Source: Candidatus Levybacteria bacterium GW2011_GWA1_37_16 (GTDB lineage: Bacteria > Patescibacteriota > Microgenomatia > Levybacterales > UBA12049). From it: a DNA stretch of 64,000 bases. The position numbers and the translations under genes are program-made. Location of the stretch: positions 306-64,305 of the forward strand of contig CALRGR010000002.1 in assembly GCA_943357985.1 (NCBI GenBank), written 5' to 3'. Of the stretch, positions 5,490 through 56,551 are shown in pieces (positions within the stretch are counted from its first letter, which is position 1; each line of letters starts with the position of its first letter). The notes beneath the pieces are model-generated. The model worked only from the letters and a program-made list of their open reading frames with translations, was not told the DNA's origin and searched no databases.

Positions 5490-5938
5490 AGGTTTATTTA
5501 GCATCAGATCATGCAGGGCTCGAACTTAAAGATAAGATAAAGATTTATCTTGAAGGAGCAGAATATGAGGTAGTTGACTGTGGAGCTTTTGATTTTGATA
5601 AGGATGACGACTATCCAGATTTTATAACAGCCGCTGCAGAGAAAGTTTCCAAGGACGAAGGCTCTCTTGGAATTGTTTTGGGAAAATCAGGGGCAGGGGA
5701 GGCAATTGTTGCAAATAAAATAAAAGGCATCCGCGCAGTTTTAGGTTTTAATAGGGAAAATATTTTACTTGCAAGGACTCACAATGATGCAAATGTTTTG
5801 TCTTTGGGGTCTGCTTTTGTAAATGAGGAAGAGGCAAGAGAGTTGGTAAAGTTATTTTTAGAAACACCATTTTCGGGTGACGAAAGACACAAGAGAAGAA
5901 TAGAAAAGATTACCGAGCTAGAGCGAGTGTCATCCTGA
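5486..5938 (+). CDS. rpiB: Ribose-5-phosphate isomerase B (RpiB/LacAB family)
   Basis: MKVYLASDHAGLELK... is a typical RpiB N-terminus; ~150 aa. Confidence 0.85.
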   Translation: MKVYLASDHAGLELKDKIKIYLEGAEYEVVDCGAFDFDKDDDYPDFITAAAEKVSKDEGSLGIVLGKSGAGEAIVANKIKGIRAVLGFNRENILLARTHNDANVLSLGSAFVNEEEARELVKLFLETPFSGDERHKRRIEKITELERVSS

Positions 5939-5995
5939 GCAGAGCGAAGGATCCCATCGGTAACAAGAAGATTCTTCGTTGGCACTCAGAATGAC
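5929..5995. repeat. Imperfect inverted repeat (two inverted copies of the GTCATyCTGAGC..CGAAGrATC unit) that supplies the rpiB stop codon; candidate terminator
   Basis: GTCATCCTGAGCAGAGCGAAGGATC at 5929-5953 and GATTCTTCGTTGGCACTCAGAATGAC at 5970-5995. Confidence 0.6.
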
Positions 5996-6009: not shown

Positions 6010-6645
6010 ATGGAGATTATTCCCGGAATTTTAGAAAAAGATTGGTCTGAAATTGAAAAAAAGATAGAGCTTGTCCGTCCATTTGCAAATACTATTCATA
6101 TAGATATTATTGACGGCAAATTTGCTCCTAATACTACTTTTTTGGACCCGGCTCCTTTTAAAAAATATACAAGTCCTTCGGCGGGCTCAGGATTATTTTT
6201 TGAACTTCATATGATGGTAGAAGACCCGATTTCGTATCTGGATAAGTGGGCAGAGGCAGGTTTTGGGAGATTTTTAGGTCATATTGAGAAAATGACGGAT
6301 CAAGTAGAATTTGTTGCAAAAGCGCAGCTGCTCGGCGAGGTAGGGTTAGCAATAGACATGAAAACTCAGATAGAAGAAATAAAAGTGCCGTTTGAAGATT
6401 TAGATAGCATGCTTCTTATGTCTGTTAATGCCGGATTTTCAGGGCAAAAGTTTAACCCAGCGGTTATAGAAAAAATAAAAGAAGTCACGGACAAAACATT
6501 TATTCCAATTGAAGTTGACGGCGGAATAAACGATTCAAACATCTTTGATATTAAGCAAGCGGGAGTATTAAGCTGTGTTTCCACAGGTTTTATTTTTGGC
6601 GGAAACCCACAGGATCAATACAAGAAACTCCAAAGTTTATCTTAA
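6010..6645 (+). CDS. rpe: Ribulose-phosphate 3-epimerase
   Basis: IHIDIIDGKFAPN...LHMMVEDP...VDGGIN motifs. Confidence 0.85.
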   Translation: MEIIPGILEKDWSEIEKKIELVRPFANTIHIDIIDGKFAPNTTFLDPAPFKKYTSPSAGSGLFFELHMMVEDPISYLDKWAEAGFGRFLGHIEKMTDQVEFVAKAQLLGEVGLAIDMKTQIEEIKVPFEDLDSMLLMSVNAGFSGQKFNPAVIEKIKEVTDKTFIPIEVDGGINDSNIFDIKQAGVLSCVSTGFIFGGNPQDQYKKLQSLS

Positions 6646-8817
6646 AGCAGTTGTTGTTGGAGAGGGGACAGGAGCCGCGCCGCAACTGACAGTATTTTCT
6701 GTCCCTTTTACAAAATATTCATTTCTTCCAATGCAGTATTTTTGAACAATATTTGCAGGTGTGGCAATCTTCTCATCAGGATTTTTTATGAGAAGCATTG
6801 TCATAATCCTATTCCATATTGGGGTTGCTCCCGTAATTCCGGAAGCTAAGGCCTGACTCATGGGGCTGTTGTCATTATTTCCTACCCACGTGGCAACCAG
6901 ATATGAAGGAGTATACCCAATTGTCCAGTTATCTCTTTTGTTGTCAGATGTTCCGGTTTTAACGGAAACAGTATGGCCGGGAATATTAAGGATTGAATTT
7001 GGCCCAAACGCTTGTGCTCTGGCGCCTCTATCAGCCAGGATATTGGAAAGTATAAAGGCAACTCCCTGGTCAAGTACGTTTTTTGGTTTAAGTTCTTTTT
7101 TTTCAACAATATTTCCTTTTGGATCTGTAATCTCAAGAATTGGATTTACGTCTACTCTTTGTCCTGCATTTGCCAAAACTCCATAAACTTGGGCCATTTC
7201 TGTCATTTTGACTTCAGCTGCCCCGAGTGTTATTGAAAGACCATAATTTTCCGGATTATTCCATGTTGTTATCCCCATTTTTTTGGCTAAATCTATCATA
7301 TTTGCAACGCCTATTTTATCAATAGTCTTTACGGCGGGAATATTAAAAGAATTGGCAAGGGCAATTCTTAAAGAAACTCTCCCATGAAATTGACCATCGT
7401 AATTAACGGGTGAGTATGGAGCACCACCTGGATTAGGAAATGTAATAGGTGAGTCATCAATAATTGTTGCGGCTGTGTAGCCATTTGTAAGTGCAACGCT
7501 GTAAGTTACGGGCTTTATGGAAGAACCAGGCTGCCTTAGTGATGTTGTTAAATTCACAGCTCCTCCGTTTTGATCTGAATAATCTTTACTCCCAACCATA
7601 GCTAATATCTCGCCGGTTTTAGGATTTGTTATAAGAGCCGCACCATTTGAAATATTAAGACTTGAAGCTTTTTGAACTTCATCGGTTACTATATCCTGAG
7701 CTTTTTGCTGTAAGGATAGGTCTAGAGTGGTTGTAACTTTCAGTCCTCCTTTTTCAACCATTTCAAGTCCATATTTGCGTACTAATAGATCTTTTACGTA
7801 CATCACGAAATGAGGAGTTTGTATTGGAATTTGCGGCGTATTGAATTCCAGATTTTGGGAAAGAGCATCTTTTTCCTGATTTTTTGTTATGTATCCCAAT
7901 TCCCTCATTCTCCTTAAGACTTCTTTTTGTCTTTCTTGCCATGAATTGGGATAAAGTCCGTAAGGAGAATAAGTGGAGGGGGCTTTGGGGAGGCCTGCTA
8001 GAAAAGCACTTTGAGCCAGATTTAAATCTTTTACATCTTTTCCAAAATAGGTTTGCGCGCCGGCCTGCGCTCCCCAGGCTGTTCCTCCATATGGAACCTG
8101 ATTAAAATACATTTCTAAAATTTGACTTTTACTATAAATGCGCTCGGCCCAAAGTGCCAAGATTAGTTCCTTAACTTTCCTTTTTATGCTTCTCTCAGGA
8201 GTAAGTAGCGTTGATTTAATTAATTGCTGAGTTATTGTTGATCCGCCTTGAAGATGATTTCCCTGTAAATCTGAAATTGCAGCTCTTGTAATTGCCATTG
8301 CGTCAAATCCCGGATTTTTGTAGAAATTTTTATCTTCAATTGATATTGTTGCGTTTTGAAAATCTTTGGGAATAGAGGAAAGTGGAACAGATGTTCTATT
8401 CTGTGCGGCATAAATCTGGAAAAGAAGTTTCCCTTTTCTGTCAAAGATTTTTGTTGTTTGAGTACTCTGCGTGTTTGAAAGAATAACAGGATTAGGTAAG
8501 TCTTGTACAAAGATTAGTATTAGAAGAGGAGCGAAAATAAAAAGAAAGGCAAAGAAAGTCCCAAAGGTAAAGTATTTTATTTTTATGCCAATTGGAAGAG
8601 GAAAGATTTTGATTTCTTTATATTTTTTCTTTTTTTGAGAAACGTGCCATTTTGACTTTATTTTAAAGCTGTTTTTGACAACTTTTAATAAATAAATTAC
8701 AAAAAGATATACTTTTCTAAATAAATTATTTGTGAATTTTCCCAGAAGAAGTACAAAATCTCCAATGTAGATAAGAGTTTTTAATAGTAAGGCAATAACA
8801 TCAATTAAAAACAGCAT
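6637..8817 (-). CDS. Bifunctional class A penicillin-binding protein (PBP1a-like: GT51 transglycosylase plus transpeptidase)
   Basis: N-terminal TM helix; GT51 motifs (IEDKNFYKNPGFD...GGSTITQQL); transpeptidase with KTGT. An extra Lys-rich ~80-aa stretch at the N-terminus may not be real. Confidence 0.85.
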   Translation of the reverse strand: MLFLIDVIALLLKTLIYIGDFVLLLGKFTNNLFRKVYLFVIYLLKVVKNSFKIKSKWHVSQKKKKYKEIKIFPLPIGIKIKYFTFGTFFAFLFIFAPLLILIFVQDLPNPVILSNTQSTQTTKIFDRKGKLLFQIYAAQNRTSVPLSSIPKDFQNATISIEDKNFYKNPGFDAMAITRAAISDLQGNHLQGGSTITQQLIKSTLLTPERSIKRKVKELILALWAERIYSKSQILEMYFNQVPYGGTAWGAQAGAQTYFGKDVKDLNLAQSAFLAGLPKAPSTYSPYGLYPNSWQERQKEVLRRMRELGYITKNQEKDALSQNLEFNTPQIPIQTPHFVMYVKDLLVRKYGLEMVEKGGLKVTTTLDLSLQQKAQDIVTDEVQKASSLNISNGAALITNPKTGEILAMVGSKDYSDQNGGAVNLTTSLRQPGSSIKPVTYSVALTNGYTAATIIDDSPITFPNPGGAPYSPVNYDGQFHGRVSLRIALANSFNIPAVKTIDKIGVANMIDLAKKMGITTWNNPENYGLSITLGAAEVKMTEMAQVYGVLANAGQRVDVNPILEITDPKGNIVEKKELKPKNVLDQGVAFILSNILADRGARAQAFGPNSILNIPGHTVSVKTGTSDNKRDNWTIGYTPSYLVATWVGNNDNSPMSQALASGITGATPIWNRIMTMLLIKNPDEKIATPANIVQKYCIGRNEYFVKGTENTVSCGAAPVPSPTTTALR

Positions 8818-8908: not shown

Positions 8909-11077
8909 TTAAGGTGTTGGCGTTGGAGTAGCTTGATCCGGATGAGCGCAATTTACGCAGTATGTTCCGCCTCCCGGTTCTGTCACTAGGACTGATTCTT
9001 TTTCCTCAACATCTTCTGTCTGTCCAGCCTTTGCGGGTGTATTTGTTTTTTTATCAATGAAAATCTTTTGATTTCCAAGATCAGTCATCTTAGGCTCCGT
9101 TCCTTTTATGAAGTATTCAAATCTTGTAGGACAGCCGCTGTTGCCGGGTAAAAGTCCTGATATTGAGCAAATAGCTTTTTGAACAATATTAAATGATTTT
9201 TGAAACGGTTCAGCAGTCTTTTTTTCCAGCATGTGCGCCATTAAGACGTGCCAAATAGGAGCTGCCCCTGTAATTCCTGATACAAGTCCGCTCATAGGTT
9301 TATTGTCATTATTGCCTACCCAGACAACCACAACGTAAGAAGGCGTATATCCGATTGTCCAGTTATCTCTATAGTCATTTGTTGTTCCTGTTTTTACTGC
9401 AACAGGTAAATTGCCAATTCTAAGTGGAGAGTTTGTTCCAAATGCCATAGCGCGGGCGTCATTATCAGATAAGATGCTTGAAATTATATATGAAACGCCT
9501 TCCGGCAAAGCCTTTTTACCAAATATTGGAGAAGTCAAAGGTTTATATTCTTCCAAGGTTTTTCCCTTACTATCGGTAACTTTAATAATGGGATGTAAGT
9601 CAATTCTGTATCCTCCGTTTGCAAAGACGCCATAAGCTGTTGCCATATCAAGCATGGTAACCTCTCCCCCTCCTAGTGTTAGAGAAAGACCATAGCGGCT
9701 AGGATTTGTGAAAGTTGAAATTCCCATAGCCGAAGCAGTTGAAATCATAGACTGAGTGCCATTTAGCTTAAGCATTTTTACAGCCGGAATATTTATGGAG
9801 TTTGCAAGGGCAAATCTCATTTGGATTACTCCGCGAAATTTTCCATCATAATTTACAGGACAATATGGAGGCTCTCCAATATTCGGATAGCAAATCTTCT
9901 CATCTATAAAAGGCGTTGCTGCCGTGTAATTGTGTATCAAGCCCACAGCGTAGTTAATTGGTTTTATGGAGGAACCTGGCTGTCTGTATGCCAGGGCGAT
10001 ATTCACGTTTCCGTCAATTGTTGGAGAAAAGTAATCCGTACTCCCAACCATAGCTAATATCTCGCCTGTTTTGGGACTTGTTATTACCGCGGCACCATTT
10101 GAAGCGTTATATCTTTTAAGACTTGTAACTTCTGCCGAAACTGAAGCCTGCGCGTACTCTTGAAGTATTAAGTCAAGACTGGTTGTCACTTTAAGTCCGC
10201 CTTCCTCAACTACTTTTTGTCCATATTTTTTAACAAGTAAGTCTTTAACATATAAAACAAAATGTGGAGCTTTAATATTATTTGATAATTTTTGGAAGTT
10301 GAGTTTCTCTTTTAAAGCTTTTTCTTGTTCATCACGGGTTATGTATCCCTGCTCATACATATTTCTAATAACTTCCTCTTGTCTTTGTTTTGCCAATTCC
10401 GGATGTGCTCCAAATGGAGAGTAGGTGGTTGGTGCTTCTGGGAGTCCTGCAAGAAGTGCGCTTTCTGCAATATCTAGTTCTTGTACATGTTTTCCGAAAT
10501 ACATTTGAGATGCTGCTTCAACTCCATAGGCAGTTCCTCCATAGGGAACTTGATTTAGATACATTTCCAGAATCTTGCTTTTGGAGTAAACTGCTTCGGT
10601 TGCAAAAGAAAGTATCACTTCTTTTATTTTTCTTGTTATGGTTCGCTCCGGTGTAAGAAGGCTTGTTTTAACCAATTGTTGAGTTAGCGTTGAACCCCCT
10701 TGAAGCTGTTTTTTAAAAACAATTGAATAAGCCGCCCTTGCAATTCCTTTTATATCTATTGCCCCATGCTGATAAAAACTTCTGTCTTCTATAGCAATTG
10801 TTGCTTTCTGCATATATTTGGGTATTGAGTTCAAAGAAACAAAACTCTGATTTTTGTTGGCATAAATTGCGTAAAGAAGTTTTCCGTTTCTGTCATAAAT
10901 CTGAGTGGATTGGGGAATAGAGGAGCTTGCCAGCCTTGTAGGCGAAGGGATATCTTTAAAAATAAAAAGTAAAAAAGTAGCGGCAAATAGAATACCAAAA
11001 ACTGCAGGAATAGAATATCTTTTTTTTCTTATGAGCCTCTTAAAAACTTTTTTAAGCCCTTTTATATCTAATTTCAT
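8909..11077 (-). CDS. Second class A PBP (PBP1a paralog), in tandem with the preceding one
   Basis: Same architecture (IEDRSFYQHGAID...GGSTLTQQL...KTGT); paralogous to the 6637..8817 gene. Confidence 0.85.
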   Translation of the reverse strand: MKLDIKGLKKVFKRLIRKKRYSIPAVFGILFAATFLLFIFKDIPSPTRLASSSIPQSTQIYDRNGKLLYAIYANKNQSFVSLNSIPKYMQKATIAIEDRSFYQHGAIDIKGIARAAYSIVFKKQLQGGSTLTQQLVKTSLLTPERTITRKIKEVILSFATEAVYSKSKILEMYLNQVPYGGTAYGVEAASQMYFGKHVQELDIAESALLAGLPEAPTTYSPFGAHPELAKQRQEEVIRNMYEQGYITRDEQEKALKEKLNFQKLSNNIKAPHFVLYVKDLLVKKYGQKVVEEGGLKVTTSLDLILQEYAQASVSAEVTSLKRYNASNGAAVITSPKTGEILAMVGSTDYFSPTIDGNVNIALAYRQPGSSIKPINYAVGLIHNYTAATPFIDEKICYPNIGEPPYCPVNYDGKFRGVIQMRFALANSINIPAVKMLKLNGTQSMISTASAMGISTFTNPSRYGLSLTLGGGEVTMLDMATAYGVFANGGYRIDLHPIIKVTDSKGKTLEEYKPLTSPIFGKKALPEGVSYIISSILSDNDARAMAFGTNSPLRIGNLPVAVKTGTTNDYRDNWTIGYTPSYVVVVWVGNNDNKPMSGLVSGITGAAPIWHVLMAHMLEKKTAEPFQKSFNIVQKAICSISGLLPGNSGCPTRFEYFIKGTEPKMTDLGNQKIFIDKKTNTPAKAGQTEDVEEKESVLVTEPGGGTYCVNCAHPDQATPTPTP

Positions 11078-11164
11078 ACTTCGGCAAGCTCAGCACAAGT
11101 ATCCTAATGATATCATTGAACCATTCCTATGACAATGATACTGTAAGTTTTATATAATAAAACC

Positions 11165-16289: not shown

Positions 16290-16299
16290 ATTCTAGTTG

Positions 16300-17142
16300 C
16301 TAGCCACTAGTCGCTAGTTGCTTCAGTTCTGTCATTGCTTTTTCTGCTTCTTCTTTTGTCGGCGGTTTGCCATGCCATGTATAATCATTTTCCATAAAAC
16401 TTACTCCTTTGCCTGGGACAGTATTGGTCAGAATGAAAACCGGCTTATCAATTATCTTTTTGGCTTCTTCTACAGCCTCAATAAAAGCTTTGATATCATT
16501 TCCGTCAACTTCAACTACATGCCAATTAAAAGCTTCATACTTTTCTTTTAATGGTTCAAGCGGCATTATGTTTTCCGTATTTCCGTCAATTTGAATGTTA
16601 TTTCTATCTATTACATTGATGATGTTAACTTTATATTTGCCCGCAAACATTATTGCTTCCCATGTATTTCCTTCCTGATGTTCTCCGTCTGAGGTTATGC
16701 AATAAACTTGAAATTTCTTGCCATCCAATTTTGCAGCCAAGGCAATACCAATTGCTTGAGAAAGTCCCTCTCCTAGCGGTCCGGATGTTGTCTCAAGACC
16801 GGGTAGGGAAGCGGCATGGGGATGTCCCTGTAGCCTTGAGTTAATTTTTCGCAAGGTCTTTAGTTCCTCAATAGGAAAATATCCTGCAAGCGCCATTGTG
16901 GCATAGCGGACAGGGACAATATGGCCATTTGAAAGAATAAGTCTGTCTCTGTCTGGCATATCCGGATTTTTAGGATCGTGGTTTAGTATATGAAAGTAAA
17001 AAGCGGTAAAAATATCTGCCATCCCCAAAGGCCCTGCCGAGTGGCCGCTTCCTGCCTCAACAAGCATTTCAATAATAAGCTGCCTTATCTTATTTGCCTT
17101 AACTTCTAAATCTTTTAATTTTTCTTCGCTTAACTCTCCCAC
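16300..17142 (-). CDS. Transketolase, N-terminal (TPP-binding) subunit
   Basis: GSGHSAGPLGMADIFTAFYFHILNHDPKNP... is the TPP-binding motif of transketolase. Confidence 0.85.
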   Translation of the reverse strand: MGELSEEKLKDLEVKANKIRQLIIEMLVEAGSGHSAGPLGMADIFTAFYFHILNHDPKNPDMPDRDRLILSNGHIVPVRYATMALAGYFPIEELKTLRKINSRLQGHPHAASLPGLETTSGPLGEGLSQAIGIALAAKLDGKKFQVYCITSDGEHQEGNTWEAIMFAGKYKVNIINVIDRNNIQIDGNTENIMPLEPLKEKYEAFNWHVVEVDGNDIKAFIEAVEEAKKIIDKPVFILTNTVPGKGVSFMENDYTWHGKPPTKEEAEKAMTELKQLATSG

Positions 17143-25138: not shown

Positions 25139-25588
25139 ATGAAATGTCCCTACTGCGGAGGAAGTGAAACAGAAGTTGTTGAAACAAGAGACAGCGAGGA
25201 CTTAGAAACCATAAGAAGAAGACGGTCTTGTCTTAAATGTGATAAGAGATTTACAACGTACGAGAGAATAGAAAATGTACATTTAGTCGTAATAAAGAAA
25301 GACGGAAGAAGAGAGCAGTTTACTAGAGATAAATTAAAAGCAGGACTTGCAAATGCAGCGCAGAAAACAAAAGTATCTCTGGAAAAAATAGATAAGCTGG
25401 TAACGGAAGTAGAAAGAGAGTTGCGTGGAGGAGACAGCGTAGAAGTAGAAAGTAAGAAAATAGGGCAACTGGTTGCAAATAAGTTAAAAAAGATAGACAA
25501 AGTTGCTTACATAAGATTTTCTAGCGTTTTTAGAAGATTTGTAGATGTTGAAGATTTTGAAAAGGAATTAAAAAGACTTATTAAATGA
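25139..25588 (+). CDS. nrdR: Transcriptional repressor NrdR (Zn ribbon plus ATP-cone)
   Basis: MKCPYCGGSETEVVETRDSEDLETIRRRRSCLKCDKRFTTYERIE is diagnostic of NrdR. Confidence 0.9.
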   Translation: MKCPYCGGSETEVVETRDSEDLETIRRRRSCLKCDKRFTTYERIENVHLVVIKKDGRREQFTRDKLKAGLANAAQKTKVSLEKIDKLVTEVERELRGGDSVEVESKKIGQLVANKLKKIDKVAYIRFSSVFRRFVDVEDFEKELKRLIK

Positions 25589-28032
25589 CAAGTGGAAAAA
25601 TAAATATGAAACTAGACGGAATAAGAGAAAAAGTATTTTTAGACAGGTACGCCTTGAAAGGCAAAGACGGGGAGCTTTTGGAGCATGAACCCGAAGAAAT
25701 GTGGAAGAGAGTAGCAAGGGGAATCGCAAAGAAAGAGAAAAAAGAAGTCCGCAAGCAGTGGGAAGACAAATTCTACAGCATTATGGAGGACTTCAAATTT
25801 GTTCCAGGCGGAAGAATCCTCTCGGGTGCAGGAACAGATTATCAGGTAACTTACTTTAACTGTTTTGTAATTCCCTCACCTAAAGATTCAAGAGAAGGAA
25901 TTCTTGACTCTTTAAAGCAATTGGTTGAAATTCAATCCCGTTCAGGTGGAGTAGGACTTAATCTCTCATCGCTACGGCCAAATGGGGCAAGAGTTAAAAA
26001 GGTAAATGGAACTTCATCTGGTCCTGTAACTTGGGCAGGACTTTTCTCCTACGCAACGCATGATGTTGTGCAACAGGGCGGAACCCGAAGAGGAGCAACG
26101 ATGATCATGCTTTGGGATTGGCATCCGGATATTGAGGAATTCATAACAGTTAAGCAGGATTTATCAAAAATTAATGGAGCAAATCTTTCAGTTTGTGTTT
26201 CGGATGACTTTATGCAAGCTGTAAAAGATGATGCAGATTGGAATTTAGTCTACCCGGATTTAGACGACCCGCGCTACGATTCTAAATGGAATGGAAACTT
26301 GGATGAGTGGAAGAAGATGGGAGGAAAAGTAAAAGTTTACAAAACCATAAAAGCAAGACAACTCTGGGATTTAATTTGTGAGGCAGCTTGGAAGTCTGCA
26401 GAGCCAGGTCTTCATTTCTTAGAGCGAAGCAACAAAAGAAGCAATACTTGGTATTTTGAGAAATTGATTGCAACAAATCCTTGCGGGGAGCAGCCTCTTG
26501 GTGGATGGGCAGTCTGTAATCTTGGAGCAATGAATTTATCTGCTTATGTAAGGCCTGCCTCGCTTGACGGCGGTCAAGGCGGGGATGAAGTATTTGATTT
26601 TGAAAACTTTGGAAAAGATGTAAAAGTAGCCATGAGATTTATGGATAATGTCATTGATTCAACCTATTATTTCTTTCCGGAGAATGAAAAATGCGCAAAG
26701 GACATAAGAAGAACCGGACTTGGAATAATGGGAATAGCGGATGCGCTTATTAAAATGAAGATCCGTTACGGGAGCGAAGAATCACTTCCTATTATTAGAA
26801 AGATTTTTGAGACACTCAGAAATAATTCTTATGAGGCATCAACAGAAGTTGCATCGGAAAAAGGCTCTTTTCCTAAATTTAACAAAGAAAAGTACCTTAA
26901 GGGATATCACATAAAAGCATTGCCAAAGTCTTTGAGAGATAAAATTGCAAAAAATGGAATAAGAAACGCGGTTTTACTTACAATTGCTCCAACGGGAACA
27001 ACAAGTCTCTTGGCAGGGGTTTCCTCTGGAATTGAGCCGGTTTACGAATTCACTTTCATAAGAAGGGACAGAACAGGGGAACATATGATGTATCATCCAC
27101 TATTTGAGCAGTGGAAAGAAGCAAATCCTGGAGCAGAAAGACCGGAATATTTTGTTTCGGCAAATGACTTAACTCCTCTTGAGCATACGATAGTTCAGGC
27201 AGCAGCTCAAGAATATATTGATTCTTCTATTTCAAAAACAGTAAATGCTCCAAATTCTCACACAATTGATGATGTTAAAACTCTTTACATGTCGGCATAT
27301 GACTTAGGTCTTAAAGGAGTAACTTACATGAGGGACGGTTCAAGAGAAGGAGTATTATCCAGAGTTGGGGATGCTTCGGCAAGCTCAGCACAAGCTAAAA
27401 AAGAAGAAGTTGTACCAAAAAAAGTAGCCCAAAGTAGGCCAATGATTCTTGAAGGATACACTTATCAGCTTGAAACACCAGTTGGAAGAACCTACGTAAC
27501 AATCAATCATAATGAAAATAGAGAACCGCTTGAAGTCTTTATAACTATTGGAAAGTCTGGATCCGATGTTGAGGCAATGGCAAATGCGTTGGGACGTATG
27601 ATTTCGTTATCTCTTAGGCTTGAAAGTGATGTAGCCCCCCGCGAAAAGGTAAGAAAAATAGTTGCACAGCTTTCAGGAATTGGTGGAGCAAGAAGCGTTG
27701 GATTTGGAAAAGACAGAGTTAGATCACTTCCTGATGCTTTGGCCAAAGTTTTGGCAAATCATCACGGGTTTGCAGTAAACGGACACGTTGAAGACAAGCC
27801 GGGATTTGTTTTTAACGGACACCAAAACAATCAGCAAAAAGTAGAAGAGACACCGGTACTGGTTGAAAATGTTATAATTTCTCCTCTTCCAATGATTGAA
27901 CCCGTACATGAATCTTTTGCGGAGGCTTCTACAACAGGACTTTTTGATATTTGTCCTGAGTGTGGAAGTGGAACTTTTGCATACGAAGAAGGCTGCCGCA
28001 AATGTTATGGCTGCGGATACGCCGAATGCTAG
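25585..28032 (+). CDS. nrdJ: Adenosylcobalamin-dependent ribonucleotide reductase (class II, NrdJ) with a C-terminal Zn ribbon
   Basis: Class II RNR motifs (..NPCGEQPL.., ..TVNAP..) and a C-terminal CPECG...CYGCG motif; follows nrdR. Confidence 0.85.
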   Translation: MTSGKINMKLDGIREKVFLDRYALKGKDGELLEHEPEEMWKRVARGIAKKEKKEVRKQWEDKFYSIMEDFKFVPGGRILSGAGTDYQVTYFNCFVIPSPKDSREGILDSLKQLVEIQSRSGGVGLNLSSLRPNGARVKKVNGTSSGPVTWAGLFSYATHDVVQQGGTRRGATMIMLWDWHPDIEEFITVKQDLSKINGANLSVCVSDDFMQAVKDDADWNLVYPDLDDPRYDSKWNGNLDEWKKMGGKVKVYKTIKARQLWDLICEAAWKSAEPGLHFLERSNKRSNTWYFEKLIATNPCGEQPLGGWAVCNLGAMNLSAYVRPASLDGGQGGDEVFDFENFGKDVKVAMRFMDNVIDSTYYFFPENEKCAKDIRRTGLGIMGIADALIKMKIRYGSEESLPIIRKIFETLRNNSYEASTEVASEKGSFPKFNKEKYLKGYHIKALPKSLRDKIAKNGIRNAVLLTIAPTGTTSLLAGVSSGIEPVYEFTFIRRDRTGEHMMYHPLFEQWKEANPGAERPEYFVSANDLTPLEHTIVQAAAQEYIDSSISKTVNAPNSHTIDDVKTLYMSAYDLGLKGVTYMRDGSREGVLSRVGDASASSAQAKKEEVVPKKVAQSRPMILEGYTYQLETPVGRTYVTINHNENREPLEVFITIGKSGSDVEAMANALGRMISLSLRLESDVAPREKVRKIVAQLSGIGGARSVGFGKDRVRSLPDALAKVLANHHGFAVNGHVEDKPGFVFNGHQNNQQKVEETPVLVENVIISPLPMIEPVHESFAEASTTGLFDICPECGSGTFAYEEGCRKCYGCGYAEC

Positions 28033-35597: not shown

Positions 35598-35712
35598 AGT
35601 TCGATATATCAATCTTCGATTTCGCTCAGCATCCTGAGCTTGCCGAAGGATAAACAATATCCTATAATATCAAGAATGAAGCTAATAGTCAAGAAGCATT
35701 TATAAAAGGCTT

Positions 35713-36054
35713 ATGAAAAGAATTATATTCGCAATTTTAGTTTTCAGCTTAAGCTTAGTAATCGTTGGTCTTGCCCGTTCAATATATGACCTTTGGAAAA
35801 AGCAAGATTTGGTTATTTCTTATCAAAAACAGCTTGTAAAACAGAAAAATGAGAATCAGACACTAAAACAAAAGCTTTCATTAACAAATAACCCTAAATT
35901 TGTAGAACAGCAGGCAAGAGACAATCTTTTCCTGTCAAAACCGGGGGAACAGAATATACTTATTCCCAGCGGGCTTCTTATAAGTAGTAGTTCCGCAAGG
36001 CCTATAGAAGACCTAATTCCAAATTGGAAGAAATGGTGGAACCTGTTTTTCTAG
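35713..36054 (+). CDS. Septum formation initiator (FtsB/DivIC family)
   Basis: N-terminal TM helix, coiled-coil, then FVEQQARDNLFLSKPGEQNILIP, a DivIC-like motif. Confidence 0.6.
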   Translation: MKRIIFAILVFSLSLVIVGLARSIYDLWKKQDLVISYQKQLVKQKNENQTLKQKLSLTNNPKFVEQQARDNLFLSKPGEQNILIPSGLLISSSSARPIEDLIPNWKKWWNLFF

Positions 36055-36296
36055 AATTTCAAATTTAAAACTTTTATTTTCTTAGTCTTATCCCAGCCCT
36101 TAATTTGGCTTTCTCTTTTTAAAGCTTCAGATTGGGAACTAAGCTCCTCTAGGTAAACTTTCTTAATAGGTTTATGAGATCTTGTGTATCTTCCACCCTT
36201 GCCGTTTTTATGGTCGGAAAATCTTCTGTCTGGATTGTTCGAGGAGCCAGTATAAAGACTTCCGTCTGAACACAAAAGTATATAAACAAACCACAT
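36051..36296 (-). CDS. GIY-YIG (URI-domain) nuclease, UPF0213-like; start taken at MWFVYILLC
   Basis: FVYILLCSDGSLYTGSSNNPDRRFSDHKNG...YTRSHKP is the GIY-YIG motif. Confidence 0.7.
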   Translation of the reverse strand: MWFVYILLCSDGSLYTGSSNNPDRRFSDHKNGKGGRYTRSHKPIKKVYLEELSSQSEALKRESQIKGWDKTKKIKVLNLKF

Positions 36297-36742
36297 AGAA
36301 AAGTGCTTGCACTGAACTGAGCGAAGCAATGAAATCGCACTTGCCCTTCGACGCGATTTTCGCATGTGCTCAAGTCTTGCTCAGGACACTTCATCTGTGC
36401 TTCGCCCAGCTGAAGTGTTGCGGGGCTGGGAGTTGGACCCAGCCTACAAGATTATGCAATCTGTTTCTCCGGTTACCCAGAGTGTCGGACTATATCATCA
36501 TCCTTGATAAATCTAGGATGTTCAGCGTATAGTCTCTACGGGGTCAATCTCGATTAAATCGGGACGACTTCCCTCGGTATTGCCCTTTGTCTAGGGTTTC
36601 ACCGATATAGCTAAATTCTCTTTTATACGTTGCCGTATAAAGGGCCCATTTTTGAGCCTCGTGTGCACCGTACACTACCCCGCGCGTTTGAACATTATAC
36701 AATTTGATTTAAGGCTCGTCAACCTGATAAAATAGGTGGCAA

Positions 36743-44241: not shown

Positions 44242-45402
44242 ATGAAAATTGCAATTGTTCACGATTACATAAAAGAGTACGGTGGCGCTGAACGAGTTCT
44301 GGAAGAGTTAATTAAGTTATATCCTAAAGCAACTGTATATACAACGGTATATTTGCCTAAATATTTAGGACCTCATAGGCAAAGGTTTAGTGAATACAAA
44401 ATTAGAACATCTTTCTTGCAATATCTTCCTTTTAAAGCCAAATTAATTTCGCCTTTTAGACTCTTATCTCCTTTAGCTTTTAAGCTTTTCAACTTCTCGG
44501 ATTTTGATTTAATAATTACATCTCAAACCGGTGCATACTTCCCAAATATCCTAGATAAGGAAAAAGCCGTGCTTATCTCTTACACCCACACGCCTCCAAG
44601 ATATCTATATGGGTTTGCAACAGCAAGGGAGTGGAAGAAAAACCCTGTTTTGAGATTTTTAGGAGAGCTTGCTAACCATTTCCTGCGTCTTTTAGATTAT
44701 AAAGCCGCACAAAATGTAGATTATTTTATAGCAAATTCAAAAAATGTAGCAGGAAGAATTAAAAAGTTCTATAGACGTGATGCTGTTGTAATTTATCCTC
44801 CGGTGGGTGTTCAGGAATCAGGAATAGGGAATAAGGAATCAAGAAAAAAAATTCATAATTCAAAATTCATAATTCCTAATTCATATTATCTGGCAGGAGG
44901 TAGGCTTGCACGGCCAAAACATATAGAGCTTATTGTTATGACTTTTACAAAATTAAGAATTCCTTTAAAAATCTTTGGTAAGGAATTTGCGGGATACGGT
45001 GATTCTCTTAGACGCATTGCCGGTAAAAACGTGGATTTTTTAGGTGAAATATCAGACGAGGAAAAGCTCGATCTAATGAAAAACGCCAAAGCATATATTT
45101 TTGCGGCAGAGGATGAGGATTTTGGGATTACTCCAGTTGAAGCAATGATGGTTGGCACTCCTGTTATAGCTTACAAGTCAGGGGGAGTTATAGAGACCGT
45201 AGTAGACCCTTCGGCAGGCTCAGGGCAAGTGGCGACAGGTGTATTTTTTGATAGGCTTTCCGCGGGACCGCTTACCATGGCACTTAATAAATTTAAAACA
45301 ATAGATTTTGATAAAAATGCTATCATAAAACATGCCAAAAAGTTTTCCGCGGAAAACTTTGATAGGGAATTGAAGAAGTTTATTTCTAAAGTGACTAAAT
45401 GA
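44242..45402 (+). CDS. Glycosyltransferase family 4 (GT-B, 'group 1')
   Basis: C-terminal EDFGITPVEAMMVGTPVIAYKSGG motif. Confidence 0.75.
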   Translation: MKIAIVHDYIKEYGGAERVLEELIKLYPKATVYTTVYLPKYLGPHRQRFSEYKIRTSFLQYLPFKAKLISPFRLLSPLAFKLFNFSDFDLIITSQTGAYFPNILDKEKAVLISYTHTPPRYLYGFATAREWKKNPVLRFLGELANHFLRLLDYKAAQNVDYFIANSKNVAGRIKKFYRRDAVVIYPPVGVQESGIGNKESRKKIHNSKFIIPNSYYLAGGRLARPKHIELIVMTFTKLRIPLKIFGKEFAGYGDSLRRIAGKNVDFLGEISDEEKLDLMKNAKAYIFAAEDEDFGITPVEAMMVGTPVIAYKSGGVIETVVDPSAGSGQVATGVFFDRLSAGPLTMALNKFKTIDFDKNAIIKHAKKFSAENFDRELKKFISKVTK

Positions 45403-47263: not shown

Positions 47264-47410
47264 ATGCCAGAGTTACCAGAAGTAGACCCATTCGGCTTCG
47301 CTCAGGGCAAGAACATTGAGAATCGGCAGCCGCGGTACCTACTTTTGTCCCAATTGTCAGAAATAAATCTATTGTATTTTTATAACCCCTATGCTACTAT
47401 CCTATTCTAG
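47264..47410 (+). pseudogene. Decayed remnant of formamidopyrimidine-DNA glycosylase (Fpg/Nei): MPELPEVD...RYLLL retained, the rest lost
   Basis: Leaderless ATG 6 nt after a TATAAT at 47253-58. It encodes MPELPEVD (the Fpg N-terminus with catalytic Pro2/Glu3), then a repeat-derived linker, then RQPRYLLLSQL (compare the Fpg RAKYLLLEL motif), then a stop. Confidence 0.4.
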
Positions 47411-50621: not shown

Positions 50622-50693
50622 ATAATGATATAATTATAGCAGTTTTACTAAGCAACTAGCCACTAGTAGCTAGAAACTAGTCGCTGCATTTCT

Positions 50694-51866: not shown

Positions 51867-53642
51867 ATGACGTTTAAAAATTTATCCTTATATCTTGAAA
51901 AACTTGATAATACTTCATCCCGTCTTGCTTTGATAGACATACTTTCAGACCTATTCAAAAGTTCTTCAAAGGCAGAAATTTCCATGATTTGCTACTTGGT
52001 TCAAGGGAGAATTGCTCCATTTTTTAAGCCTGTTGAGATTGGAATGGCAGAAAAAACAGTAGCCCAGTCTATTGCCATTTCCTACGGTAGTTCGAAAGAT
52101 GAGGTTTTAAAACTTTATGGAAAACTTGGGGACATGGGACTAGTTGCTTCGCAACTTAATTCAAAATTCAAAGTTCAGAATTCAAAATTAACAGTAGCAC
52201 AAGTTTTTGAAATTTTAACTCAAATTGCAGGTACAAATGGGGAGGGGACAGTGGAGAAGAGGCTAAAACTTCTCTCTGACTTATTAAAGAAACTCGACTC
52301 AATCTCGGCAAAATATCTTGTTAGAATCCCTCTCGGAAATTTGCGTTTGGGAATTGGCGATCCCACAATTTTAGAAGGTCTTTCTGTGGCAAAATTTAAT
52401 GATAGGAGCAAGAAAAAGATATTGGAGGGGGCATATAACAGGACTTCCGATTTGGGGCTAATTGCGCAGATTTTATGGGAAAAGGGACTGCCGGCTGTTG
52501 AAAAGCTTGAGGTAAAAGTCGGATATCCAATTAGGTCTGAACTTTGCGAAAGGCTTCCGACCCCTCAAAAAGCAATTGAAAAGATGGGAACCGTTGACGT
52601 GCAGTATAAATATGATGGTTTTAGGGTTCAAATCCACAAAGACGGAGACAATGTTTCTATGTTTTCCAGAAATCTTGAAAATATGACTCATATGTTCCCT
52701 GAGCTTATTGAGGGAACACTAAAGCAAGTAAAAGCAAAAACTGCGATTTTAGATTCGGAAGCTCTTGCATACAGCCCTGAGTCTGAAGAATTTTTGCCTT
52801 TTCAGGAAACAACAAAAAGAAGAAGAAAGCACGGAATTGAGGAAATGGCTGCAAAACTTCCTCTTAAAGCATTTGTTTTTGACATTTTATATAAAGACGG
52901 AAAATCTTTAATAGATAGCCCATTGACGGAGCGCATTAAAGCTTTAAAAAGCACGATTGAAGAGGATGGAACGCTTATTCCGACAATTACTCAGACAATT
53001 TCAGACCCCAAAGAGTTGGGAATTATGTTGGAAGATGCAATTTCCAAAGGTTTGGAAGGAGTTGTTATTAAGAAACTGGATAGTAAATATGAAGCTGGAG
53101 GACGTAATTTTAATTGGGTAAAGCTTAAAAGGCATTCGGCTGGAGAATTGCACGACACTATTGATTGCGTAATTTTGGGATATATTTTTGGAAAAGGTAA
53201 GAGGGCGGATTTTGGAGCCGGAGCGCTTTTGGTTGGTGTTTATGATAGTAAAAAAGATGAATTTGTTACTGTTTCAAGAATTGGAACAGGCCTTACGGAT
53301 GATGAATGGCGCGAAATTCACAAAAGAGCGGACAAAATAAAAGTTGATCATAAACCTGCGCGTGTCAGCTCGCTTATTACGCCTTCTGTTTGGATTAGAC
53401 CGGAGATTGTAATTGAAGTATTAGCGGATGAAATAACCCGTTCCCCAATTCACACGGCCGGTCGTTCGACTCTGAGGGATGAGCCCTCAGGCTCAGACTC
53501 GAAGAGCAAGACCGAAACAGAGCCCGGATATGCTTTGCGTTTTCCAAGGCTTGTCTCTTTTAGAGATAAAGATAAGAAAGCAGAAGACGCAACATCTGTT
53601 AAAGAACTCGCCGAGATGTTTTTCCAGCAGTATAAAAAGTAA
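51867..53642 (+). CDS. ATP-dependent DNA ligase
   Basis: Adenylation motif I VQYKYDGFR (KxDG), OB-fold region, N-terminal DNA-binding domain. Confidence 0.85.
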   Translation: MTFKNLSLYLEKLDNTSSRLALIDILSDLFKSSSKAEISMICYLVQGRIAPFFKPVEIGMAEKTVAQSIAISYGSSKDEVLKLYGKLGDMGLVASQLNSKFKVQNSKLTVAQVFEILTQIAGTNGEGTVEKRLKLLSDLLKKLDSISAKYLVRIPLGNLRLGIGDPTILEGLSVAKFNDRSKKKILEGAYNRTSDLGLIAQILWEKGLPAVEKLEVKVGYPIRSELCERLPTPQKAIEKMGTVDVQYKYDGFRVQIHKDGDNVSMFSRNLENMTHMFPELIEGTLKQVKAKTAILDSEALAYSPESEEFLPFQETTKRRRKHGIEEMAAKLPLKAFVFDILYKDGKSLIDSPLTERIKALKSTIEEDGTLIPTITQTISDPKELGIMLEDAISKGLEGVVIKKLDSKYEAGGRNFNWVKLKRHSAGELHDTIDCVILGYIFGKGKRADFGAGALLVGVYDSKKDEFVTVSRIGTGLTDDEWREIHKRADKIKVDHKPARVSSLITPSVWIRPEIVIEVLADEITRSPIHTAGRSTLRDEPSGSDSKSKTETEPGYALRFPRLVSFRDKDKKAEDATSVKELAEMFFQQYKK

Positions 53643-53672: not shown

Positions 53673-54983
53673 GTGGAATTTGTAACAGATTTACATTTGC
53701 ATAGTAAATACTCCAGGGCTGTTTCTCCAAGCATGACGCTTCCTTTTATGGCTGCGTGGGCAGTAAAAAAGGGAATAGATGTTTTGTCAGCAACGGATTT
53801 TACACATCCATTGTGGTTTAAGGAAATTAAAGCTTTGCTAGAAGAAGATGGGGAAGGAGTTTATAAACTAAAAAATATCGATAACAAGACGAAATTTATG
53901 CTTTCAACAGAAATTGCGAGCATTTTTAAGCAAGGAGAAAAACTAAGAAGAATTCATAATTTATTGTTTGCGCCAAATTTAGAAATCGCTGAAAAAATTA
54001 ACAAAGAATTAATAAGAAGAGGTTGTAATATTGCGTCTGACGGTAGACCGATTGTTGGCCTTTCCTCAAAACAGCTTTTGGAAATGGCGCTGTCTATTGA
54101 CAAAAAAGTCATTCTTATTCCGTGTCACGTCTGGACACCTCACTTTGGACTTTACGGTTCTGCAAGCGGCTTTGATACTATAGAGGAAGCATTTGGCGAT
54201 CTCTCAAAATACATCTACGGAATTGAAACGGGAATTTCCTCTGATCCTTTTATGAATTGGCAGATTCCTGAGCTTGAAAAGCGCGCAATACTTTCTTTTT
54301 CCGATGCTCATTCTGCCCCAAAAATGGGAAGAGAAGCAACGGTTTTTAAATTGCCAAAATTATCATATTCTGAATTTGGAAAAGCCCTTGCAATGCTAGA
54401 TGAAGAATCAAAAGTTTCTCATACGATTGAATTTTATCCTGAAGAAGGGAAATATCATTACACCGGACACAGGAATTGTGGAGTTTCTCTTTCCCCAAAA
54501 GATGTAAAAGAAAAAGGAGCAATTTGTCCTGTTTGCAAAAGAAAATTAATAGAGGGAGTAATGTTTAGAGTCCAGCAGGTTGCAGGCCGTGAGGTTTCAA
54601 CCGATGAGCCGATTCCTCAACCGGATGAAAATGGAGTCAATTGGATAAAAGATCCAAAAAATATTCATCCTCCTTTTGTAAAACTTGTACCACTTCTTGA
54701 AATTGTTGCCGAAGGTCTTGACTCGACGACCTCGTCTGAAAAAGTAAAGATGCTTTTTGATAAATTATGCGATGAACTCGGCTCAGAACTTAAAGTATTG
54801 TTAAAAACTCCGCTGGATGACATAAAAAGAGTTGGGGGAGAGAGAGTTGCCGAGGGAGTTTTGAAAGTAAGACGTGGAGATATCTCAATTACGCCCGGAT
54901 TTGATGGTGAATATGGAAAAGTTGCAATATGGTCCGCCTCGTCCGGCGAGCGGGCGAGTCGAGACGGGTCCGATAAAATTTAA
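53673..54983 (+). CDS. PHP-domain protein with an internal Zn ribbon; endonuclease Q-like (TIGR00375-type), putative
   Basis: N-terminal DLHLHSKYS (a PHP motif), CPVCKRK Zn-binding segment, ~436 aa like EndoQ; lies next to the DNA ligase. Confidence 0.45.
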   Translation: MEFVTDLHLHSKYSRAVSPSMTLPFMAAWAVKKGIDVLSATDFTHPLWFKEIKALLEEDGEGVYKLKNIDNKTKFMLSTEIASIFKQGEKLRRIHNLLFAPNLEIAEKINKELIRRGCNIASDGRPIVGLSSKQLLEMALSIDKKVILIPCHVWTPHFGLYGSASGFDTIEEAFGDLSKYIYGIETGISSDPFMNWQIPELEKRAILSFSDAHSAPKMGREATVFKLPKLSYSEFGKALAMLDEESKVSHTIEFYPEEGKYHYTGHRNCGVSLSPKDVKEKGAICPVCKRKLIEGVMFRVQQVAGREVSTDEPIPQPDENGVNWIKDPKNIHPPFVKLVPLLEIVAEGLDSTTSSEKVKMLFDKLCDELGSELKVLLKTPLDDIKRVGGERVAEGVLKVRRGDISITPGFDGEYGKVAIWSASSGERASRDGSDKI

Positions 54984-55028: not shown

Positions 55029-55658
55029 ATGAAATTAATAGTGGGGCTTGGTAATCCGGGAGAGAAATACGCAAAAACACGTCATAACTTGGGGTTTATG
55101 ATTGTTGATCAGTTTTTGAAAGATTTTGAGCCTCAAAAAGATACCGTTTGGAATGATAGTAAAAAATTCAAAAGTGATATTGCCCAGATAGAATGGCACC
55201 GCCGTTCGGCAGGTTCGTCAAGCTCACTGCGAGCAAGCTCAGGCCAAGCAATCATGGAAAAAGTTATTCTTGTTAAGCCTAAAACCTACATGAATAACTC
55301 CGGCATGGCTGTTTCTCTTATTTCAAAGTTTTATAAAATTAAACCTGAAGATATTTGGATTGTCCATGACGATATAGATTTTCAAGTTGGAAATTTAAAA
55401 ATCAGATTTGGTGGAGGAGACGCAGGGCACAATGGAGTTGCGTCAGTTACAAAGAGTCTTGGTACGGATAAATTTTGGAGAGTAAGGCTTGGAATTGAAT
55501 TTGGGGAAAAGATTGTTGTGGAAGATTTTGTTTTGCGAAATTTTTCGCCCAAAGAGAAGGGGAAAGTTAAAAAAGTTATAAAAAATGCATCAGATGCTTT
55601 GCAAGAAGTTTTAGAAAATGGAACAGACGTTGCAATGAACAAATTTAATACAAGGTGA
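55029..55658 (+). CDS. pth: Peptidyl-tRNA hydrolase, with a ~19-aa Ser/Ala-rich in-frame insertion
   Basis: MKLIVGLGNPGEKYAKTRHNLGF...HDDIDF...GHNG; extra segment HRRSAGSSSSLRASSGQA relative to E. coli Pth. Confidence 0.85.
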   Translation: MKLIVGLGNPGEKYAKTRHNLGFMIVDQFLKDFEPQKDTVWNDSKKFKSDIAQIEWHRRSAGSSSSLRASSGQAIMEKVILVKPKTYMNNSGMAVSLISKFYKIKPEDIWIVHDDIDFQVGNLKIRFGGGDAGHNGVASVTKSLGTDKFWRVRLGIEFGEKIVVEDFVLRNFSPKEKGKVKKVIKNASDALQEVLENGTDVAMNKFNTR

Positions 55659-55685
55659 CCCATTCGACTAATCCTCAGGGTCATA

Positions 55686-56493: not shown

Positions 56494-56551
56494 CACATTC
56501 GATACATTCGATAAAGCTCAGGGTCTTCGTCACCAAGTCAGACTTGGCTCC

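Follow-up and report, generated by a model that had tools for sequence, protein, structure and literature searches.

This locus raises the question of how pth, the gene of an essential enzyme, came to carry a floppy 17-residue loop, which it tolerates. The gene lies at positions 55029-55658 (+) of a 64,000-nt stretch of contig CALRGR010000002.1, and this whole stretch is called the window. The window is AT-rich, with a GC content of approximately 38%. The best matches of the window Pth and also the syntenic loci were found in Levybacteria genomes (Microgenomates, Candidate Phyla Radiation (CPR)). A first-pass annotation of this DNA had described an in-frame insertion in pth that is made of a dispersed repeat. 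We consider it probable that pth acquired the segment at 55200-55250 from a short dispersed DNA repeat, of which it is a translated copy, and that Pth did not evolve it as a functional part.

The repeat-derived segment of pth

Judged from its sequence, the pth open reading frame (ORF; 209 aa) encodes a full-length peptidyl-tRNA hydrolase of the Pth1 family. The product matched Pfam PF01195 over profile positions 1-183 of 183 (E=1.9e-60, 204 bits against a cut-off of 27), and Pth entries of the PDB matched with E-values down to 2.8e-41. Residues N9, H19, N89, D114, and H134 are invariant in the Pth alignment of 52 homologues, which indicates that the catalytic residues are intact. By the alignment, N9, H19, N89, and D114 correspond to the catalytic Asn10, His20, Asn68, and Asp93 of E. 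coli Pth.

The repeat-derived in-frame segment (55200-55250, +) codes for RRSAGSSSSLRASSGQA. It was characterized by codon alignment with loci L082, L087, and L085, GC content, a shuffle test, and AlphaFold. When the window Pth is aligned with those of E. coli and M. tuberculosis and with 120 homologues, it reads WH-RRSAGSSSSLRASSGQA-IMEK between the conserved strands ..KSDIAQIEW and EKVILVKPKTYMN. The nearest relatives, P0003 and P0004 (syntenic loci L087 and L082), are 81% identical to the window Pth outside the loop. Their loop is unexpanded and reads TGG CAG CCA AAG CAT GGG AAA ATG GAA, which is WQPKHGKME(K). L085 has a one-unit loop, TGG CAG CGC CGT TCA GCA GGC TCA GGC CAA GCA ATT ATG GAA, which is translated as WQRRSAGSGQAIME. 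Compared with L082 and L087, 51 repeat-derived nucleotides replace the 12 nt of the four-residue PKHG turn and lengthen the loop by a net 39 nt (13 aa). Compared with E. coli Pth, the loop is approximately 19 residues longer.

The repeat consists of two conserved boxes, CCTTCGGC and GCTCAGGNCAAG, with a short variable spacer between them, and its core is CCTTCGGCARGCTCAGGRCAAG. Approximately ten copies of the form (C)CCTTCG(G/A)C-N2-3-GCTCAG(G/C)NCAAG are present in the window. Against an expectation of 2.6, the 64 kb contain 11 instances of the motif TTCG..CTCAG, or approximately 0.17 per kb. The similarity of the pth insert to these copies was assessed with 2000 composition-matched shuffles. 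The best local score of the insert against six other window copies was 24, versus 12 in the shuffles (p=0.0005), and the two-segment score against the window copies was 45 versus 22 (p<0.0005). The one-unit form in the relatives, CGTTCGGCAGGCTCAGGCCAAGC, and the copy at 45205, CCTTCGGCAGGCTCAGGGCAAGT, are nearly alike, with 20 of 23 positions in common. When the repeat profile was run over 88 pth genes, 11 of the 14 matches fell in the same Pth loop.

The window sequence equals that of L085 with TTCGTCAAGCTCACTGCGAGCAAG placed between ..GGCAGG and CTCAGG... These extra 24 nt (55214-55237, +) stand out by comparison with L085 and L008, in which CGCCGTTCGGCAGG is joined to CTCAGGCCAAGCA without them. 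The peptide SSSSLRAS was found in 0 of the 120 homologues. The extra 24 nt are a second but incomplete copy of the repeat that separates the boxes of the base unit and is private to the window genome. The pth segment as a whole is one repeat unit plus this partial unit, which together give two tandem 15-nt units, AAGCTCACTGCGAGC and AAGCTCAGGCCAAGC (55220-55249, +). By sequence reading, these are identical at 11 of 15 positions and are translated as SSLRA and SSGQA.

The GC content is 63% in the insert versus 35% in the remainder of pth. The insert also uses rare codons: CGC, CGT, TCG, and GGC make up 8%, 11%, 8%, and 17% of their own synonymous sets, respectively. The identical Pth protein was found on 8 contigs from several samples, and the same DNA was found in an independent Logan assembly (L081). 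This indicates that the insert is not an assembly artefact.

AlphaFold2, supplied with a 52-sequence alignment, modelled the window Pth with a mean predicted local distance difference test (pLDDT) score of 91 and a predicted template modelling (pTM) score of 0.89. Residues 49-57 and 76-84 form strands, residues 58-75 form the loop between them, and pLDDT falls below 50 at residues 62-67. The insert is predicted to be the tip of the beta2-beta3 hairpin, a flexible and disordered surface loop. In the model, the catalytic Asn89 (TYMN motif) lies at the opposite end of strand 76-84, one nine-residue strand away from the insert, and the hairpin tip would be remote from both the active site and the tRNA surface.

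The main claims of the first-pass annotation on the segment all held. The DNA string that it quoted occurs once, at 55204-55245, within pth. The in-frame position was borne out by the codon-by-codon alignment of empty, one-unit, and two-unit alleles. The derivation from a TTCG..GCTCAGG repeat agrees with the shuffle test (p<0.0005) and with the reading of one unit plus a partial unit as two tandem 15-nt units, and the surface loop agrees with the modelled hairpin tip (pLDDT <50). The size of approximately 19 aa (57 nt) is correct against E. coli Pth. It does not hold against the close relatives, where the net gain is 39 nt and the PKHG turn is replaced, so that this is not a clean insertion.

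A hairpin or riboregulator in the pth insert was tried as a candidate and dismissed because the fold was no better than that of shuffles. Rfam 15 gave nothing at gathering score at or near the pth insert or the other copies.

Loop states and the proposed spread of the filled allele

The loop length was compared in 120 Levybacteria Pth. A short turn (consensus WQPKHGxLE) was present in 68 and a longer loop in 52. Approximately 36 of the 120 were of the RRS..SGQA kind, in which the length of the spacer between the boxes varies. The first-pass annotation had proposed to check whether the insertion is lineage-specific, and the answer is divided. The insertion is absent from the nearest relatives and its extra 24 nt are private to the window genome, while the base unit is present in about a third of Levybacteria Pth. 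Across the 120 homologues, no conserved loop of equal length without similarity to the repeat was found, which was the result that the annotation had named as contrary to its claim.

The repeat was found in this one loop in three reading frames. L008 reads CGT TCG GCA GGC TCA GGC (RRSAGSGQA), followed by RHD, a remnant of KHG. L006 reads TCC TTC GGC TCC GCT CAG GAT (SFGSAQD), followed by KHGK, and L090 reads TCC ATT CGG CAG GCT CAG GAC AAA (IRQAQDK). Because the same loop holds three frames, the repeat entered it at least three times. In L020 (2523-2546), the first Pth loop is empty and the repeat lies in a second loop, as TLRLRSGQE before ..YVEDYVL. The data suggest that Pth has two permissive loops. 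In L089, a different GC-rich palindrome occupies the position of the second-loop repeat of L020.

On a loop-masked Pth gene tree, the long or short state needs 25 changes (22-30 over 200 bootstraps), and 19 of the 52 long-loop Pth have a nearest neighbour with a short loop. The scatter of the RRS..SGQA alleles on this tree fits spread by recombination. All of these alleles have a Pth-specific 5' junction, CGCCGT(TCG), versus the generic (G/A)AY-CCTTCGG in other genes. Because this junction is common to them, the RRS..SGQA alleles probably derive from one event. The first-pass annotation had spoken of repeat insertion. This stands for a few true insertions, but recombination of pth alleles accounts better than new insertions for some of the patchiness of the distribution.

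Codon identity at invariant residues was 0.68 inside the insert versus 0.47 outside (p=0.02), and nine filled pth alleles, although divergent, all have the rare codons CGC CGT .. GGC. The codon identity in the insert fits a recent common DNA origin or a constraint at the nucleotide level, and not conservation at the protein level. Copies of the repeat that have decayed towards AT were found in L028, L036, and L038, and local growth was found in the window, L084, and L088. In the 6-kb flanks of other Levybacteria pth loci, the repeat occurs at 0.035 per kb; this is close to background, and the copies are too few to be related to the loop state. L088 has a filled loop and L089 an empty one. The last 412 nt of their pth genes are 100% identical, and the difference lies in a patch of approximately 85 nt around the loop, both flanking strands included. 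The remaining close pairs are approximately 77% identical, which makes their junctions ambiguous.

Overall, a few true insertions would have been followed by the spread of a filled cassette by recombination, and then by decay and local growth. One unit, CGCCGTTCGGCAGG joined to CTCAGGCCAAGCA (RRSAGSGQA), would have replaced the four-residue beta2-beta3 turn in some ancestor, giving an allele that is common to many Levybacteria. The window genome would then have gained the 24-nt partial unit between the boxes, by nested copying from another copy or by slippage. New copies of the repeat may be templated by existing ones, and homologous recombination that exchanges a short piece of pth may carry the filled allele between lineages. 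The insert would persist because it is in frame and has no stop codons, because every residue encoded in this frame (S, A, G, Q, R, L) is small or polar, and because it sits in a flexible surface turn. We read the repeat in pth as a tolerated passenger, a copy of a selfish or neutral repeat.

The repeat in other genes and the competing explanations

The exact 22-mer pattern CCTTCGGCARGCTCAGGRCAAG was found in at least 120 metagenome contigs and 12 viral contigs. The counts in this paragraph and the next are among the matches listed. The GC content of the contigs ranged from 0.31 to 0.73, so the 22-mer is taken to be present in many phyla. Conservation around it extends merely 1 nt upstream and 2-4 nt downstream. 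Host hairpin loops hold 9 of 131 sites, which hints at a preference for loops of DNA hairpins as targets. In L103 (12175-12244, -), the 22-mer lies in the terminal loop of an Acido-Lenti-1 RNA hairpin, where the loop has 26 nt versus 4-5 nt in a sister copy on the same contig. It forms a 26-nt insertion in this hairpin loop and does not belong to the Acido-Lenti-1 family. Single 22-mer copies without an inverted arm were not enriched near tRNA genes, and the repeat was absent from the plasmid collection searched. A single 10-nt match prompted the idea that the TTCGAC box comes from a tRNA or its T-loop, and this idea was set aside. No description of the repeat was found in the literature on its peptides, on Rickettsia palindromic elements (RPEs), or on CPR repeats, of which the coverage was incomplete.

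In AT-rich contigs, 17 of 35 sites lie within ORFs of at least 200 codons, all in the sense direction. Their frames are PSA(S/G)SGQ in 11 cases and LRQAQGK in 6, with none in the third frame and none antisense. The hosts assigned by Pfam are a class II aminoacyl-tRNA synthetase, FtsK, TypA/BipA, YchF, an isoleucyl-tRNA synthetase (IleRS)-type enzyme, Ddl, an RluA-type synthase, LepA, a glycosyltransferase, and an HMA/DsbD protein. The IleRS-type class I synthetase (L160, 3084-6653), which has the repeat in frame, also carries a PF00300 histidine-phosphatase domain (residues 522-686) inside its catalytic domain. The first-pass annotation had called the pth insertion unusual. It is real, and it is not isolated, since many housekeeping genes in uncultured bacteria with AT-rich DNA hold the same 22-mer in frame, and so do at least four other genes of the window.

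The window itself has at least four copies within long ORFs. The copy CCTTCGGCAGGCTCAGGGCAAG (45205-45232, +) is in frame (PSAGSGQVA) in a family-4 glycosyltransferase gene (44242-45399; Pfam GT1/GT4), where it forms a 7-residue insertion relative to the PDB homologue. A copy at 27370-27395 (+) is in frame (ASASSAQA) in the linker between barrel and TSCPD domain of ribonucleotide reductase (25585-28029). Another, at 6173-6197 (+), is in frame (PSAGSG) in ribulose-phosphate 3-epimerase (6010-6642), whose loop is just approximately 2 residues longer than in PDB homologues. All three copies are read in the PSAGSG frame. As read from these sites, an identical short element is shown to occur at many unrelated positions, and within genes it takes only frames and positions that the protein tolerates. 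The pth case is one instance of this general habit.

Several results weigh against a tolerated passenger that enters by insertion. The profile hidden Markov model (HMM) built from nine non-pth window copies recovered two pth fragments weakly (4.4 and 3.8 bits); because of these scores, the case for identity with the repeat rests on the shuffle test and the clean one-unit form in relatives. The probable single origin of the RRS..SGQA alleles weakens the picture of a hot spot of many insertions. Neither a clean insertion boundary nor a target-site duplication was definable in pth, where the sole near-isogenic pair, L088 and L089, differs by a patch. This patch is either a recombination tract or the product of a chimeric contig, the L088 contig being 701 bp long. 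The raised synonymous-site conservation would equally fit selection at the nucleotide level. An inverted partner was present at 7 of the 131 sites listed, and the pth copy folds no better than shuffles (z=-0.53), so that the word palindromic does not fit the pth copy. No transposase and no REP-associated tyrosine transposase (RAYT, Y1), named after the repetitive extragenic palindromic (REP) elements, was found among the approximately 55 ORFs of the 64-kb window. The insert is presumed to be neutral for the activity of Pth.

The nucleotide-level alternative holds that a functional DNA or RNA site (for nuclease recognition or cleavage, for protein binding, or as an uptake-type signal) is embedded in coding DNA, with the peptide as a by-product. 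We consider it unlikely. The 22-mer is identical across listed contigs of 31-73% GC while conservation falls sharply 1-4 nt outside it, and divergent pth alleles retain the rare codons, as expected of such a site. A copy also stands immediately upstream of a conserved GIY-YIG gene, which is treated in the next section; this holds for the window, for L097, and for 12 of 16 homologues with an upstream-extended ORF (an indicative count only). However, the copies in L028, L036, and L038 decay towards AT. The density is low (0.17 per kb) and comes near background in the pth flanks of other Levybacteria, and the pth copy has neither significant structure nor an Rfam family. Moreover, two benign frames are what a selective filter on selfish DNA would leave by itself.

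An old functional loop of Levybacteria Pth under protein-level selection, such as an Arg-rich tRNA patch or an RRxS phosphorylation site that resembles the repeat by coincidence, is very improbable in our judgement. The RRS..SGQA peptide does recur in approximately 36 of the 120 homologues, and both arginines and the serine are invariant among the filled alleles. Against this, 68 homologues, the two closest relatives among them (PKHG), have a short turn, and the scattered distribution needs at least 22 changes on the gene tree. The same DNA gives unrelated peptides in three frames of one loop and is found in unrelated genes; its GC content and codon usage are foreign to pth, and the loop is predicted to be disordered. 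We give hardly any credence to local tandem duplication, slippage, or an assembly artefact with no relation to the dispersed repeat. This explanation would suit the two tandem 15-nt units with their 11 identical positions, and the source is a metagenome-assembled genome. However, the independent assembly and the 8 contigs from several samples hold the same DNA and protein, respectively, the similarity to copies 10-50 kb away is significant, and the one-unit form of the relatives closely resembles the 45205 copy (20 of 23 positions). Slippage may account for the second unit and cannot account for the first. A translated copy of the dispersed repeat is the explanation that we prefer.

RPEs are in-frame, translated, and tolerated insertions in many Rickettsia genes (Ogata et al. 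2000, via PMC10969869). They are described as palindromic, approximately 100-150 bp long, and confined to Rickettsia (PMC10969869). The present repeat behaves alike. It lies in frame in unrelated conserved genes (those of Pth, the family-4 glycosyltransferase, ribonucleotide reductase, and ribulose-phosphate 3-epimerase in the window, and ten housekeeping families in metagenomes), it is translated, it occupies sites that the fold tolerates, and it is present or absent among the orthologues of close relatives. It differs in size, with a core of 22 nt and 1-4 nt of flank (a unit of approximately 22-27 nt, and 51 nt in pth) versus the 100-150 bp described for RPEs. It also differs in that an inverted partner is mostly missing (7 of 131 listed sites) and the pth copy does not fold, though a copy at 35611-35652 does. 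Unlike RPEs, the 22-mer is not confined to one genus. The likeness is one of behaviour, and sequence similarity is not expected. In this sense, the repeat is a small-scale counterpart of the selfish in-gene repeats of Rickettsia.

Like REP elements and bacterial interspersed mosaic elements (BIMEs), the repeat is short, GC-rich, and dispersed, and some of its intergenic copies are imperfect palindromic hairpins (35611-35652). However, approximately half of the sites in AT-rich contigs are intragenic (17 of 35 listed), whereas REPs are extragenic by definition. The copies are mostly single arms without a GTAG head, no Y1/RAYT gene is present in the window, and the core is common across phyla, whereas REP families are species-specific. 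Unlike miniature transposable elements with inverted repeats (MITEs), which measure 50-500 bp, the repeat is shorter, has no terminal inverted repeats, and shows no duplication at the pth junctions. Mobile GC-rich clusters and hairpin elements invade AT-rich mitochondrial genomes, in-frame positions of protein genes included, and like the present repeat they have no known mobilizing enzyme. The repetitive hairpin elements of sponge mitochondria are reportedly an example (PMC2800124). These elements differ from the present repeat in being organellar and hairpin-forming, and the likeness implies no relatedness.

Uptake signal sequences (USS) and DNA uptake sequences (DUS) are short conserved motifs in genes that prefer tolerant frames and positions, are spread by recombination, occur at approximately 1 per kb, and are species-specific. 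The present repeat resembles them as a short motif in genes at tolerant positions that would be spread by recombination. Unlike them, it occurs at approximately 0.17 per kb here and at 0.035 per kb in the pth flanks of other Levybacteria, and its core is common to unrelated phyla.

For pth itself, the segment appears benign, and the interest lies in the repeat family. A sequence of approximately 25 nt, the same across very different base compositions, stands in frame in core genes of ultra-small uncultured bacteria. It may offer a second system, independent of RPEs, for how selfish DNA shapes protein surfaces. For annotators, peptides of the SGQA, LRQAQ, or SLSKG type in such proteomes are to be read as repeat-derived.

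A nuclease lead and other features of the window

An 81-aa UPF0213-type GIY-YIG nuclease gene lies at 36054-36296 (-) (Pfam PF01541, E=2.6e-21; PDB 1zg2 and 1ywl, annotated as UPF0213). Directly upstream of it, by sequence reading, there is a split antisense copy of the repeat, GTCCTGAGCAAG..hairpin..TCGAAGGGCAAG, together with a partial sense copy (36300-36390, -). The nhmmer matches at the split copy are weak (36375-36390 and 36304-36328). In the window and in L097 (3640-4045), the nuclease gene is located just 3' of a tRNA gene. The L097 gene is flanked by a split antisense copy before it and an exact sense 22-mer after it. The homologue P0225 has an N-terminal extension that, by eye, resembles a translated tRNA 3' end.

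Among 120 close GIY-YIG homologues, the called ORF extends upstream of the start in 16, and 12 of these 16 contain repeat-derived peptides; the list of peptide motifs was drawn up after viewing the data, so this count is indicative only. Examples of the upstream peptides are ALSLPKG (the exact antisense translation of CCCTTCGGCAAGCTCAGGGC), SLSKD, CPEQ..SRRRA, and FDSLRSL. No GIY-YIG homologues were found in the viral contigs. We regard the UPF0213 GIY-YIG nuclease, whose function is otherwise obscure, as a concrete candidate partner of the repeat and as a lead only. Beyond this, the two-box repeat of approximately 25 nt might be the cis element (an end, target, or footprint) of a new mobile or DNA-editing system. 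Driven by the UPF0213-type GIY-YIG nuclease, this system would seed short templated insertions into DNA hairpin loops and, once selection has acted, into the surface turns of housekeeping proteins in CPR and other phyla. We hold this proposal to be possible and rather doubtful, and we give it some weight because the split always separates one box from the other, at the very place where the length of the pth copies varies.

A group I intron (Rfam RF00028, 84.6 bits, 36466-36664, -) interrupts an apparent tRNA gene in the region 36395-36700 (-). The acceptor halves GCGGGGT... and ...CCCCGCA of this putative tRNA flank the intron, and the break lies in the anticodon loop. ARAGORN made no call on the intron-split putative tRNA, and trial splicing gave no clean identity.

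The remaining copies of the window are intergenic. The full palindromic form, two inverted units as a hairpin, lies at 35611-35652, immediately upstream of a XerC/D-like recombinase gene, and was detected by nhmmer on both strands. Its RNA fold had a z-score of -3.07, and 0 of 200 shuffles folded as well; Rfam gave only generic hairpin matches to it. Further copies lie at the 5' end of a PBP1-type gene (11076-11103, +), at 47289-47313 (+; TTCGGCTTCGCTCAGGGCAAG, a variant with a 3-nt spacer), between a VTT-domain gene and fur (56503-56531, +), and at the rpiB/rpe boundary (5926-5953, -), the last with a weaker inverted partner at 5975. A weaker look-alike of the repeat is located at 55663.

Compared with L082, the ATP-dependent DNA ligase gene has a related GC-rich in-frame insertion, RSTLRDEPSGSDSKSKTETEP (53463-53525, +), which contains the palindrome TTCGACTCTGAGGGATGAGCCCTCAGGCTCAGACTCGAA. 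The segment adds 16 residues relative to the syntenic L082 gene, and its palindrome of 39 nt has TTCGA...TCGAA ends. The repeat HMM missed it, and it is less certainly a member of the repeat family.

Other observations concern different sequences. The MJ0043_C-domain protein has a GC-rich C-terminal tail, SASSGERASRDGSDKI (54933-54980, +), which is common to L086 and is truncated in the window by a stop codon; L082 and L087 have an unrelated AT-rich tail instead. A second, unrelated dispersed repeat is a 31-nt inverted pair, CTAGTTGCTAGCCACTAGTCGCTAGTTGCTT (16293-16323 and 50650-50680), whose members are 90% complementary and 34 kb apart. Two paralogues of class A penicillin-binding proteins (transglycosylase plus transpeptidase) lie next to each other at 6640-8817 and 8912-11077 (-), with approximately 71-75% DNA identity over aligned stretches of 115-241 nt.

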